Shown in pieces: positions 57,730 through 60,019 of a stretch of DNA of 64,000 nt; positions within the stretch are counted from its first letter, which is position 1, and every line of letters starts with the position of its first letter. Under the pieces are notes generated by a model that worked only from the letters and a program-made list of their open reading frames with translations, had not been told where the DNA came from and did no database searches. The position numbers and the translations under genes were made by a program. Source of the stretch: Escherichia phage pEC-M719-6WT.1; sequence record OQ845957.1; one strand, 5' to 3'.

Positions 57730-57746
57730 GAATTTTAAAAAGGGTA

Positions 57747-57775
57747 TTGACAAAGTGTTTAATACCCTTTAATAT
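57747..57775 (+). promoter_or_regulatory. sigma70-like promoter (TTGACA-N17-TAATAT) inside 10-bp inverted repeat AAAGGGTATT/AATACCCTTT
   Basis: Direct reading; palindrome overlaps -35 and spacer. Confidence 0.5.
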
Positions 57776-57837
57776 GTTCTACATAGAAACGAAAAAGAGT
57801 TTTTCTAAAATAAATTGAAGAGATTTTAAAAAATCTC

Positions 57838-57867
57838 TTGACAACCACTAAAAAATAGTGCTATAGT
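57838..57867 (+). promoter_or_regulatory. sigma70-like promoter (TTGACA-N18-TATAGT) for tRNA cluster, with flanking palindromes
   Basis: Palindromes AGAGATTTTAAAAAATCTCT upstream and CACTAAAAAATAGTG in spacer; first tRNA starts ~28 nt downstream. Confidence 0.5.
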
Positions 57868-57978: not shown

Positions 57979-58053
57979 GTCGTAGAAGGCAAATGGTTAG
58001 CCACCTGACCTTCAATCAGTTGCTCGCGGGTTCGAATCCCGTCTACGACTCCA
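57979..58053 (+). tRNA. tRNA-Glu (anticodon TTC, tentative)
   Basis: Acceptor GTCGTAG/CTACGAC, T-loop TTCGAAT, CCA end. Confidence 0.5.
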
Positions 58054-58138
58054 AATTTGACAGAAGACCAAATACAGCAAACAACTTTTACTTTTCGCGC
58101 ATAGAAAACATAAAAAGCTTGGTCTGGTCATTAAGAAT

Positions 58139-58215
58139 TGCGGGTATAGAGAAAGGGCGTCTCACATGTCTCATTAGCATGGTATCGGCAGGTTCGACTC
58201 CTGCACCCGCCTCCA
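58139..58215 (+). tRNA. tRNA with CAT anticodon (Met/Ile2/initiator unresolved); 1:72 mismatch
   Basis: Anticodon arm CATGT-CTCATTA-GCATG, T-arm GCAGG-TTCGACT-CCTGC. Confidence 0.5.
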
Positions 58216-58296
58216 AATTTACAGAAGACCGTTTACAGCAATTCAAACAATTTTATCGGAAAATTAAAATGAATACGGTCTGGTAATGTTAAACAT

Positions 58297-58383: not shown

Positions 58384-58471
58384 GCGTCGTTATCCCGTAG
58401 ATGGAAGCGGTGGTGACTGTAAATCACTTGTCATTACGACTCGGTAGGTTCGACTCCTTCACGGCGCACCA
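58384..58471 (+). tRNA. tRNA-Tyr (anticodon GTA), class II
   Basis: 88 nt with long variable arm; anticodon loop CTGTAAA. Confidence 0.6.
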
Positions 58472-58555: not shown

Positions 58556-58975
58556 ATTTTGAGAGGGCTTTTTAGCCCCTCCCTTAAAGAGTTCTTACGA
58601 GTATTCTTTAAAGGAGCAGAAGACCAAATTCAGCAAGTTACTTAAAATTTCAAGCCAATTTAATTTTGAAAAATTTAAAACTTGGTCTGGTTCCAACAAA
58701 TTTACAGAAGACCGTTTACAGCAATTTAAATCTATTTCTCTCAAAAAGAAAAGGTGAAGGTTCGATTCCTTCACACGTTACGGCGTGTTGGTGTAATGGA
58801 AGCACTTTAGATAATAACGGTCTGGTAATCCTCTTTGCAGTGACTTATGGAGCTAATATATCGTCCCATGAGTGCCGATGAATTTCCTTAGCATGATTCT
58901 AGATTAGCTTAATAGGAAATGACTCTACAAGCCCTTTAGCAAGGTTTGCGTAGGTTACTGCAAAGATGATTTAAT

Positions 58976-59209: not shown

Positions 59210-59224
59210 ATTTCAATAAAGTTG

Positions 59225-59253
59225 TTGACATTGAGATGTGACTACTTTATAGT
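59225..59253 (+). promoter_or_regulatory. sigma70 consensus-like promoter (TTGACA-N17-TATAGT) inside tRNA cluster
   Basis: Near-consensus hexamers with exact 17-bp spacer. Confidence 0.6.
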
Positions 59254-59486
59254 TACCTTAGTTTTCGTTAGCGTAGCGTCTATTTTGCAAACTTAAAAAT
59301 AAATGCAAACGATAATGTTTTTCTGGCAGTAGCTTAATAGGCTAAACACCAGTGAGGTCTTCCAATCCCTCATCAAAGAATTTGGCGTACTAGCCCACGG
59401 TATGATTAATAAAGTGGGCAACATTCTAAAGGGTATCCCTTATGGGGCTTGGCTTAAATGCAATGAGTACCCTTTAAAATGTTAAT
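59254..59486 (+). ncRNA. candidate structured ncRNA downstream of internal promoter
   Basis: ~230 nt with no ORF and no canonical tRNA fold; nested stems GCCCAC..GTGGGC and AAGGGTA..TACCCTT. Confidence 0.3.
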
Positions 59487-59563: not shown

Positions 59564-59623
59564 ATTTAATGGTCAAGACAACACTAGTAAGTCATCTTCG
59601 ATACATGTTAAGAGATGAACGAA

Positions 59624-59691
59624 AGTCGGAAAGTTGCTGAAGGTTAGCTACCTTCGATAGTAAGTAGGTTCGACTCCTACCTTGGCTGCCA
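59624..59691 (+). tRNA. aberrant tRNA-like element (~68 nt; D-arm not resolvable)
   Basis: Good T-arm GTAGG-TTCGACT-CCTAC and CCA end, stem GAAGG-TTAGCTA-CCTTC, but no standard D-arm or full acceptor pairing. Confidence 0.3.
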
Positions 59692-59833
59692 AATAGTTAG
59701 CAGATTGCTTAGACGACCTTAACGGGTCTCCGTGTAAGGAGGTGGTCTGTATCTCATGTTTCCAGAGCATGTAAAATATTCTGAGAAGGGGCTTTACAGT
59801 GTTGTGATAATACGGTAAGCTTCGAATTATAGT

Positions 59834-59916
59834 ATGGGACGATGTTAAGACACTAAGGCATGTGCGTAAGCCTCCAAAACTTACTCAAAGGGGTTCGAAT
59901 CCTCCGTCCCATGCCA
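59834..59916 (+). tRNA. atypical tRNA-like element (possible anticodon CCA/Trp; ~8-nt insertion between acceptor and D-stem)
   Basis: Perfect acceptor ATGGGAC/GTCCCAT, T-loop TTCGAAT, CCA end; body 83 nt without a class II variable arm. Confidence 0.35.
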
Positions 59917-59929
59917 AAGTCTTATTAGG

Positions 59930-60017
59930 GGTAGGTAGCGGCTAATGGAAGCCAAACTGTCTTGAAAACAGTTGCCACTGTAGAGATACGGTGAGGGTTC
60001 GACTCCTTTACTTACCG
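59930..60017 (+). tRNA. tRNA-Ser (anticodon TGA), class II
   Basis: Anticodon arm ACTGT-CTTGAAA-ACAGT; long variable arm; CCA not encoded. Confidence 0.6.
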
Positions 60018-60019
60018 CC

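Follow-up and report, generated by a model that had tools for sequence, protein, structure and literature searches.

A probable non-canonical tRNA-Trp(CCA)-type gene and a neighbouring tRNA-like unit in the tRNA array of Felix O1-like phages

The stretch of DNA considered here, 64,000 nucleotides of Escherichia phage pEC-M719-6WT.1 (OQ845957.1; hereafter the window, one strand read 5' to 3'), carries towards its end a tRNA array (about 57.9-63.6 kb) in which two elements combine a tRNA-like 3' half with an irregular 5' half. We propose, with a probability of roughly 0.6, that the downstream one (element 2, 59834-59916) encodes, in a non-canonical form, the tryptophan tRNA of the phage, and that the upstream one (element 1, ending at 59691) is a separate tRNA-like unit that most likely does not decode. 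That element 2 is a tRNA-Trp-type gene maintained by selection appears very probable; that it also acts as a working tRNA is a weaker proposition, drawn from its sequence, for which we consider the odds to be somewhat better than even.

Both elements belong to the array. The window contains 27 copies of the T-arm motif GGTTCRANTCC, where 0.12 are expected, and every copy lies on the plus strand within 57.9-63.6 kb; furthermore, the 3' halves of elements 1 and 2 align in register with those of the neighbouring tRNAs. Because the motif is confined to the array and these 3' halves are in register, we regard the two as true array members and not as chance look-alikes. ARAGORN reports 24 tRNA genes in the array, and Rfam at its gathering threshold gives 24 tRNA matches, including two (57979-58050 and 58711-58780) that ARAGORN misses. 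Neither program returns a standard cloverleaf, or any call at that threshold, for element 1 or element 2, which accords with the original prediction that both are aberrant. In a permissive Rfam search of a 376-nt stretch, the tRNA family RF00005 matched neither element even at E<=10, the sole RNA-family match being tRNA-Sec (18.5 bits, E=0.39) at 59836-59910, within element 2. BLAST places the region among the Ounavirinae (Felix O1-like myoviruses, Suspvirus-type), with 258 matching phage records headed by Escherichia phages EcSzw-2 (93.9%) and mistaenkt (Suspvirus, 92%).

Element 2 is composed as follows.

59834-59916, plus strand: element 2, an 83-nt non-canonical tRNA-Trp(CCA)-type gene with an 8/4 acceptor/T division, an expanded connector and an encoded GCCA
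59834-59841, plus strand: acceptor 5' strand ATGGGACG, pairing with 59905-59912 (CGTCCCAT)
59842-59850, plus strand: connector ("E-loop") ATGTTAAGA, 9 nt between the acceptor and D stems, where 2 are normal
59851-59864, plus strand: D arm, stem CAC/GTG (59851-53 with 59862-64), loop TAAGGCAT with a GG dinucleotide
59866-59884, plus strand: anticodon arm, stem GTAAG/CTTAC (59866-70 with 59880-84), 9-nt loop CCTCCAAAA
59874-59876, plus strand: anticodon CCA, C59871.A59879 being unpaired
59890-59904, plus strand: T arm, 4-bp stem GGGG/CCTC (59890-93 with 59901-04), loop TTCGAAT
59905-59916, plus strand: acceptor 3' strand CGTCCCAT, followed by discriminator G59913 and the encoded CCA (59914-59916)

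The perfect 7-bp acceptor stem (ATGGGAC/GTCCCAT) and the GCCA end at 59916 are present as originally described, and an eighth pair, G59841-C59905, is available to lengthen the stem to 8 bp. The T arm had also been called perfect, a description that does not survive: a conventional 7/5 division needs an A.C and a G.U, whereas the 8/4 division leaves a 4-bp stem, GGGG/CCTC, with a single G-U, the next T-stem position being A.C. Element 2 has, in this form, the 12-bp acceptor branch split 8+4 that is the mark of 8/4 tRNAs. The surplus of nucleotides already noted between the acceptor and D stems is confirmed (9-10 nt where a normal tRNA has 2), as is the double reading of the anticodon arm, either as a perfect stem GTAAG/CTTAC with a 9-nt loop, or with a C.A mismatch closing a 7-nt loop, CUCCAAA, whose anticodon is CCA. 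The variable region measures 5 nt (TCAAA). Element 2 departs from the canonical tRNA in its 9-nt connector, its 8/4 split and the C.A or C.C at positions 31.39 found in 12/12 variants. Its loops, on the other hand, are canonical, with T54-T55-C56-purine57-A58, GG in the D loop, U33, A37 and an encoded CCA.

These departures explain why gene finders overlook element 2, namely the 9-nt connector, the never-Watson-Crick 31.39 with its resulting 9-nt loop, and the 8/4 helix split. For ARAGORN the connector is the single obstacle, since cutting it by 4 or 6 bases in silico yields a tRNA-Trp(cca) call for the window, mistaenkt, Felix O1 and Moogle variants, none of which is called in its native sequence. 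The tRNA-Sec match does not make element 2 a member of that class (RF01852, 18.5 bits with a threshold of 47), its anticodon being CCA and not UCA, its branch 12 bp and not 13 bp, and its variable loop short. A pairing between connector (59842-46) and D loop (59857-61) was considered as well; although 98% of its cells are paired, it has no two-sided changes, does not rise above shuffles, and was dropped as it leaves 0 nt between the helices and is incompatible with the D stem that covariation supports.

The case for selection comes from the relatives. We aligned 12 distinct variants of element 2 from GenBank and IMG/VR (Suspvirus, Mooglevirus, Felixounavirus and two Pectobacterium phages) and scored one explicit structure of 20 pairs in four helices against 500 shuffles, with the 3' partner slid by 1-3 columns as a control. 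In this structure 99.6% of cells form standard pairs, the slid controls reaching only 34-52%, and 8/20 pairs, spread over all four helices, show two-sided changes; the covariation score is 0.311 against 0.133 in the shuffles, 0/500 of which attain 0.311. All 8 acceptor pairs are formed in 100% of cells, while pair 1-72 varies between A-U (7 variants), G-U (4) and G-C (1), and pair 2-71 between U-A and C-G; the eighth pair never varies, and on that pair covariation is silent. The middle pair of the D stem is A-U in 5 variants and U-A in 7, with one wobble change in a Pectobacterium phage; four of the five anticodon-stem pairs have two-sided changes (GTAAG/CTTAC, AACGG/CCGTT, GACGG/CCGTT, GTAGG/CCTAC); and the outer T-stem pair turns from G-C to U-A in Moogle and Sf13.

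The unpaired positions are equally telling of what is held constant. In the anticodon loop (CCTCCAAAA, CTTCCAACA and CTTCCAAAC) positions 32, 38 and 39 vary, and T33-CCA-A37 is invariant from E. coli to Pectobacterium phages; the T loop occurs as TTCGAAT, TTCAAAT, TTCAACT or TTCGACT, all of which retain T54, T55, C56, purine 57 and A58. The connector ATGTTAAGA is nearly invariant, Pectobacterium phages included, with one T->C in PC79-13. At 31.39 every variant has C on the 5' side and either A or C, but no G, on the 3' side, though a single C->U transition would close the pair. Taken together with the changes in the stems, the variation of the two loops is what one expects of an anticodon arm and a cloverleaf that are both under constraint. 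The window and Pectobacterium copies of element 2 share 81.6% identity, syntenic bona fide tRNAs spanning 64-91%. Outside this group little was found: searching IMG/VR with the 15-mer GGGACGATGTTAAGA gave 85 loci, tRNA-like in Ounavirinae only, and a relaxed connector-anticodon-T-loop pattern brought two further matches there, both by chance.

The identity of element 2 points to tryptophan. Trp identity resides in the anticodon, in the first base pair and in the discriminator, which is G73 in both E. coli and B. subtilis (PMC9976931); in element 2 the CCA anticodon and discriminator G59913 (G73) are invariant in the 12 variants. As a reference we used E. coli tRNA-Trp, confirmed in 5,426 genomes (100% identity, annotated tRNA-Trp, median one copy per genome). 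A second line of evidence is the genomic slot, defined by the non-coding sequence directly upstream:

59692-59833, plus strand: spacer between elements 1 and 2, 142 nt, non-coding, holding an invariant AAGGAGGTG

This 142-nt spacer precedes the slot in all Enterobacteria-infecting relatives; it is found in 258 phage records and always followed by a CCA-anticodon tRNA of one of two types. In about 230 of the 258 it runs on into element 2, and in 23 Ounavirinae records (e.g. Salmonella phage S19cd, L021 1649-1719) the slot is occupied by a compact 71-nt tRNA-Trp(CCA). Since these counts add up, we regard element 2 and the compact tRNA-Trp as alternative occupants of one slot. The compact gene is called by ARAGORN and unreported by Rfam at the gathering threshold, and GenBank labels it Trp, OTHER or Pseudo, or leaves it unlabelled; a copy with about 78% similarity to it occurs in Vibrio phages K566, K567 and D484. 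In the Pectobacterium phage Arno162 an annotated 38-codon open reading frame (ORF) upstream of the element 2 homologue replaces the enterobacterial spacer, the homologue has a bulged base in the 3' acceptor strand, and a tRNA-Ser(UGA)-like sequence (L018 1611-1700), unannotated and without an ARAGORN call, directly follows it.

Existing annotation leaves the place of a tryptophan tRNA vacant. The inventory of the Moogle-like phage Sf14, with gene order as in the window, comprises 26 tRNAs for 19 amino acids, Trp alone being missing (PMC12482277), and the tRNA table of Felix O1 has none at the position of element 2 (PMC3185647). Among the matches listed, 0/100 carry a tRNA feature over element 2.

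For element 1 we prefer the following limits and parts.

59571-59691, plus strand: element 1, a 121-nt tRNA-like RNA gene with acceptor GGTCAAG/CTTGGCT, two hairpins, T arm and GCCA
59592-59618, plus strand: hairpin 1, stem TCATCT/AGATGA, 15-nt loop; C59593-G59617 becomes U-A in the Mooglevirus group
59639-59655, plus strand: hairpin 2 (the earlier "anticodon arm"), stem GAAGGT/ACCTTC, 5-nt loop TAGCT
59664-59691, plus strand: T arm and 3' end, GTAGG/TTCGACT/CCTAC (59664-59680), CTTGGCT, discriminator G, CCA

The original prediction described a unit of about 68 nt with a perfect T arm and CCA end and without a D arm. The 3' part of this description stands (GTAGG/TTCGACT/CCTAC at 59664-59680, then CTTGGCT-G-CCA to 59691), and so does the lack of a D arm, only 8 nt separating the 59624-30 acceptor strand from the next hairpin. 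The 5' limit is poorly supported: with 59624-30 the acceptor has 3 Watson-Crick pairs, 3 G-U and 1 A.C, whereas a better partner, GGTCAAG at 59571-77, lies 53 nt upstream and gives 5 Watson-Crick of 7 bp (6 in relatives) and a unit of 121 nt. This unit starts 7 nt past the CCA of tRNA-Arg, matching the usual spacing of the array. Its 12-bp acceptor/T helix (7 bp, 59571-77/59681-87, plus 5 bp, 59664-68/59676-80, then G-CCA) has 100% of cells paired in 6 variants, a layout that would suit RNase P and end processing. The four-helix cloverleaf, on the contrary, is not there, as no D arm is present and the conserved loop nucleotides are confined to the T loop and CCA.

Each internal hairpin of element 1 shows one two-sided change among its six variants, in hairpin 2 that of T59644-A59650 to G-C in the Mooglevirus group. 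Positions 32/38 are U-A in three variants and G-C in three, giving a 6-bp stem with a 5-nt loop; since this closing pair covaries, the loop is one of 5 nt and no 7-nt anticodon loop. A competing minimum-energy fold, in which AGTCGGA pairs with the T loop TTCGACT, was rejected, as the G->A at T-loop position 57 in Moogle breaks the pairing and keeps a purine. Because element 1 keeps the parts for end processing (acceptor/T minihelix and GCCA) and not a D arm or a 7-nt anticodon loop, we judge that it most likely does not decode; it is probably either a tRNA-like RNA that the phage can do without or a remnant of rearrangement within the array. Among the options originally left open for it, we favour pseudo-tRNA or tRNA-like RNA, its loop being no anticodon loop and close relatives being without the element.

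Upstream of the spacer the array exists in at least four configurations, namely tRNA-Arg(TCT) alone, tRNA-Arg(TCT) with element 1 (the window, mistaenkt, SUSP2, KMM2, Michonne and Moogle), a D-armless Arg(TCT)-like gene (radambza type), and an HNH gene (Felix O1). In two relatives, L003 and L009, precisely the segment 59560-59687 is missing, its 128 nt corresponding to one 7-nt spacer plus one 121-nt unit, and L009 has an element 2 identical to that of the window, yet no element 1. The D-armless tRNA-Arg(UCU)-like gene before the spacer is carried by many Felixounavirus phages, among them Escherichia phage radambza (L004 852-933) and seven other relatives (L007, L008, L010, L012, L024, L058 and L074). 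It has 4 nt in place of the D arm and a 20-nt insertion in the variable region, is missed by ARAGORN, and exists in two versions that differ by one compensated anticodon-stem pair (GCGGT/ACCGC and GCTGT/ACAGC).

Several points weigh against the proposal as a whole. For element 2, literature searches found no data on expression, end-mapping or charging, nor anything relevant on a Felix O1 tRNA-Trp, non-canonical Felixounavirus tRNAs or phage D-armless tRNAs. The 9-nt connector falls at positions 8-9 and could disturb the tRNA core; U31-A39 has been predicted as a Trp determinant in E. coli, where element 2 has C.A or C.C; and in the only case of an 8/4 E-loop tRNA that was assayed, none of the enzymes tried charged it (PMC5389517). 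In the Pectobacterium copy the acceptor stem contains a bulged base, and in-silico deletion does not rescue this copy. Furthermore, the variants of element 2 sample few independent lineages, and counting covarying cells therefore exaggerates how often such changes arose. Folded as single sequences, neither element has a remarkable energy (z = -1.0 and -0.6), and these statistics are uninformative. For element 1, the comparison comprises only six variants with two two-sided changes, covariation supports neither of the two candidate 5' acceptor strands over the other, and a 7-nt complement within about 110 nt upstream would, by our own estimate, be expected by chance roughly one time in ten.

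That element 1 is, taken by itself, a decaying pseudo-tRNA is a serious possibility, which we place somewhat short of even odds. Its absence from near-identical relatives agrees with decay; the two compensated pairs hint at some constraint, though thinly.

For element 2, a role outside translation is the alternative that survives best, albeit as an unlikely one: a tRNA-Trp mimic acting as decoy or sponge for a host factor (e.g. an anticodon-loop nuclease), or a nuclease-resistant functional variant. Its irregular features have been kept and not corrected, position 31 being always C and 39 A or C, and the near-invariance of the connector across distant relatives suggests sequence-specific recognition. 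Three papers (PMC10264068, PMC11464382, PMC11555353) propose or show that phage tRNAs act against defences aimed at tRNAs, and the soil-bacterial 8/4 E-loop tRNA was uncharged in vitro (PMC5389517). On the other hand, we found no enterobacterial nuclease specific for tRNA-Trp, and the eLife paper makes no mention of Trp. The full Trp identity set is retained, and the slot is shared with a more ordinary tRNA-Trp, for which decoding is the simplest explanation; a resistant but functional form would moreover be a special case of the tryptophan tRNA proposed here and no true rival to it. We regard it as quite improbable, though worth stating, that element 2 is a fully functional tRNA-Trp whose connector and open 31.39 are adaptations hiding it from a factor of the host or a competitor that inactivates normal tRNA-Trp, or features read by a phage or host protein. 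If this were true, Felix O1-like phages would carry a complete, partly "armoured" set for 20 amino acids, and the two Trp alleles at one slot would record a continuing arms race.

Decay of both elements, as functionless pseudo-tRNAs left by recombination or homing-endonuclease traffic, seems to us very unlikely. Neither is called by any predictor, the interval from tRNA-Ile to the spacer has at least four configurations in relatives, including the HNH endonuclease gene of Felix O1, element 1 is dispensed with by near-identical relatives, and other degenerate pieces lie in the array (e.g. 58711-58780). Element 2 nonetheless has two-sided changes in four helices, an invariant anticodon core, a distribution over about 230 genomes and 81.6% identity to its Pectobacterium counterpart. 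Since its four helices covary, its anticodon is invariant and its slot holds a compact tRNA-Trp in other relatives, the option of a decaying pseudogene, one of those first considered, is excluded for element 2, and the unusual functional tRNA, as tRNA-Trp(CCA), is the one favoured.

It is highly doubtful that element 1 is a functional 68-nt D-armless tRNA with anticodon AGC (Ala), akin to mitochondrial D-armless tRNAs and to the Felixounavirus tRNA-Arg(UCU)-like gene. Its parts can be so arranged (acceptor, 8-nt linker, 5-bp stem with loop TTAGCTA, 8-nt variable region, T arm and GCCA), and the Felixounavirus D-armless TCT element sits in a matching position, reaches 31.7 bits against Rfam tRNA, shows compensation at one anticodon-stem pair and occurs in phages without a normal tRNA-Arg(TCT) at the slot. 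Against this, loop positions 32/38 become G-C in the Mooglevirus group and leave a 5-nt loop, position 37 is U in the window and no purine, the Ala identity pair G3.U70 is absent in either acceptor reading, and in the 68-nt reading the acceptor contains three G-U pairs besides one mismatch. ARAGORN in its metazoan-mitochondrial mode finds nothing in element 1 or in the Felixounavirus Arg-like element, and the phage already has a tRNA-Ala(TGC).

Frameshift and UGA suppression can arise from an enlarged anticodon loop or from changes in the D arm (e.g. the D-arm suppressor mutants of tRNA-Trp), and according to the original prediction an expanded loop in element 2 would suggest recoding. That the loop, which is 9 nt, and conserved as such, if C31.A39 is unpaired, reads a quadruplet (+1 frameshift), or that the altered body with its abnormal D-arm region lets CCA read UGA, is scarcely tenable: the 7-nt core, U33-CCA-A37, is that of the normal E. 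coli tRNA-Trp loop, 23 relatives use a tRNA-Trp with a closed 31-39 pair and a 7-nt loop, so that no essential recoding can depend on the expansion, TGG makes up an ordinary 1.32% of codons in 69 long ORFs of the window, and a scan of the 64-kb window, limited to read-through and leaving +1 frameshift sites unsearched, gave no candidate with an open stretch of at least 120 codons, one stop and at least 60 codons in frame.

As a phage tryptophan tRNA, element 2 would be transcribed within the polycistronic tRNA array and cleaved by RNase P at A59834, guided by the 12-bp 8+4 acceptor/T helix and the encoded GCCA. The host TrpRS would then charge it via C34-C35-A36, G73 and A1-U72, and it would read UGG. 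The Felix O1-like phages, a classic group in typing and biocontrol, have hundreds of sequenced genomes, and the tRNA inventories published for them cover no more than 19 amino acids. If element 2 works, these phages encode decoders for all 20, and about 230 GenBank records are without its tRNA annotation. Bacterial translation would also have to accept seven extra nucleotides at the acceptor/D junction, an open 31.39 and an 8/4 split, which would imply a wider structural tolerance of RNase P, TrpRS, EF-Tu and the ribosome and provide a natural scaffold for engineered tRNAs. Two non-homologous Trp alleles, together with the pair of normal and D-armless tRNA-Arg(UCU), form a comparative system on why phages keep irregular tRNAs, which touches the current idea that phage tRNAs serve to withstand tRNA-directed host defences. 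Element 1 alone is of minor interest.

The spacer itself is probably a structured RNA, to judge from its modelled fold. Its consensus fold has 39 pairs in three predicted hairpin domains, with one-sided pair-preserving changes only, and in the Mooglevirus group a 23-nt hairpin is inserted at the tip of one spacer stem. The invariant AAGGAGGTG is a perfect Shine-Dalgarno-like sequence, partly sequestered in a stem, and is followed by an ATG. A conserved peptide encoded by the spacer was excluded, because two 1-nt frame-shifting indels break the reading frame, which comprises 20 codons in the window and 7 in most relatives. The flanking tRNA-type ends may release the spacer as a discrete stable small RNA.

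Upstream of these elements lies a candidate start of transcription:

59225-59253, plus strand: sigma-70-like promoter TTGACA-17-TATAGT, 11/12 consensus matches, its function being predicted

This site is the likely start of a transcript with tRNA-Arg, element 1, the spacer, element 2 and tRNA-Ser. Another promoter-like site, 59804-59833 (9/12 matches), was disregarded, as its start would fall inside the acceptor stem of element 2. An A/T tract with a TTGACA motif occurs in three copies (57732-57775, 57823-57867 and 59210-59253, the third including the 59225-59253 promoter), two of which read TTGACA-17/18-TATAGT with 11/12 matches; these repeated promoter-like motifs suggest several transcription units within the array. 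Some 230 conserved nucleotides (59254-59486) separate the promoter-like site at 59225-59253 from tRNA-Arg; they include the strong hairpins GCCCAC...GTGGGC and AAAGGGTA...TACCCTTT, as well as a stem-loop, TGAGG[TCTTCCAATC]CCTCA, with TTCCAA once more in its loop. Near this stretch Rfam gives weak tmRNA matches below threshold, which seem to be driven by the adjacent tRNA-Ile.

Further irregular pieces lie elsewhere in the array. In a third orphan T-arm element at 58711-58780 (Rfam tRNA, 29.9 bits), the T stem is 7 bp long (GTGAAGG/CCTTCAC), the acceptor is mismatched and CCA is missing; the element overlaps one copy of an intergenic repeat, CAGAAGACC(N4-5)ACAGCAA ... GGTCTGGT, found four times (58061-58128, 58214-58287, 58617-58691 and 58697-58829). 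The repeat ends are complementary (AGACC/GGTCT), and each copy could form a long hairpin between tRNA genes. A tRNA-Tyr(GTA) at 58386-58469 is sub-threshold (Rfam 22.8 bits), has a mismatched T stem and receives no ARAGORN call; its counterpart is listed as "Pseudo (Tyr)" in the Felix O1 paper (PMC3185647).

Among known systems, the 68-nt reading of element 1 and the Felixounavirus Arg(UCU)-like element resemble D-armless mitochondrial tRNAs (type III, mt-tRNA-Ser AGY; PMC7609411) in the short linker that replaces the D arm and in the retained acceptor, central hairpin and T arm. Element 1 differs from the mitochondrial type III in its 5-nt loop closed by a covarying pair, its canonical T loop, its encoded CCA and its origin in a bacterial phage. 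In phage T4, the tRNA cluster also encodes "species 1" and "species 2" (rnaC and rnaD), two stable RNAs of small size and unknown function that are matured together with the tRNAs. Element 1 and the 142-nt spacer share this setting among phage tRNA genes, a likeness of context alone that serves as a lead. In frameshift-suppressor tRNAs with expanded anticodon loops the inserted base is inside the loop; element 2 has a loop of more than 7 nt as well if C31.A39 is open, yet its core is that of wild-type Trp, and the enlargement stems from the open closing position.

With E. coli tRNA-Trp (trpT), element 2 shares an identical loop CUCCAAA, the pairs A1-U72, G3-C70, G4-C69 and G5-C68, G73, GG in the D loop, a TTCGA-type T loop and the encoded CCA. 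In contrast, where E. coli tRNA-Trp has U8-A9, U31-A39, 7/5 helices and G2-C71, element 2 has a 9-nt connector, C31.A39, an 8/4 split and U2-A71, its D stem is of 3 bp, and overall sequence similarity is low. The compact tRNA-Trp of wV8, S19cd and phiSUSP1-type phages has in common with element 2 the slot after the spacer, the loop CUCCAAA, A1-U72 and G73; unlike element 2 it is a 7/5 tRNA with a closed U31-A39, a 7-nt loop, a reduced D arm and a 2-nt connector, and no homology is detectable between the two beyond universal tRNA motifs.

The architecture of element 2 is not without precedent. tRNAs of the 8/4 type are known, also from phage tRNA clusters, and an 8/4 "E-loop" tRNA with an extra acceptor/D loop has been described (PMC5389517, PMC7609411). 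The 8/4 tRNAs of Mukai et al. 2017 have a 12-bp branch of 8+4 like element 2, some with one bulged nucleotide like the Pectobacterium copy; the phage 8/4 tRNAs described are Ser and His, whereas element 2 has Trp identity. The tRNA-Ser(UGA) adjacent to it in the window (59930-60019) resembles the 8/4 tRNA-Ser genes that Mukai et al. describe from phages, with an 8-9-bp acceptor, a 4-bp T stem, scores of 35.4 bits for tRNA-Sec and 33.7 for tRNA, and an incompletely encoded CCA (GCC, then T). Allo-tRNAs have a long variable arm and Ser identity, and with its 5-nt variable region and Trp-type identity element 2 falls outside that subgroup. E-loop tRNAs are soil transcripts, probably acidobacterial, with other anticodons, whereas the connector of element 2 is single-stranded, a distinction drawn from their descriptions. 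Element 2 is thus a Trp variant of the known class of 8/4 tRNAs with an extra loop, standing unannotated in a well-studied group of phages.

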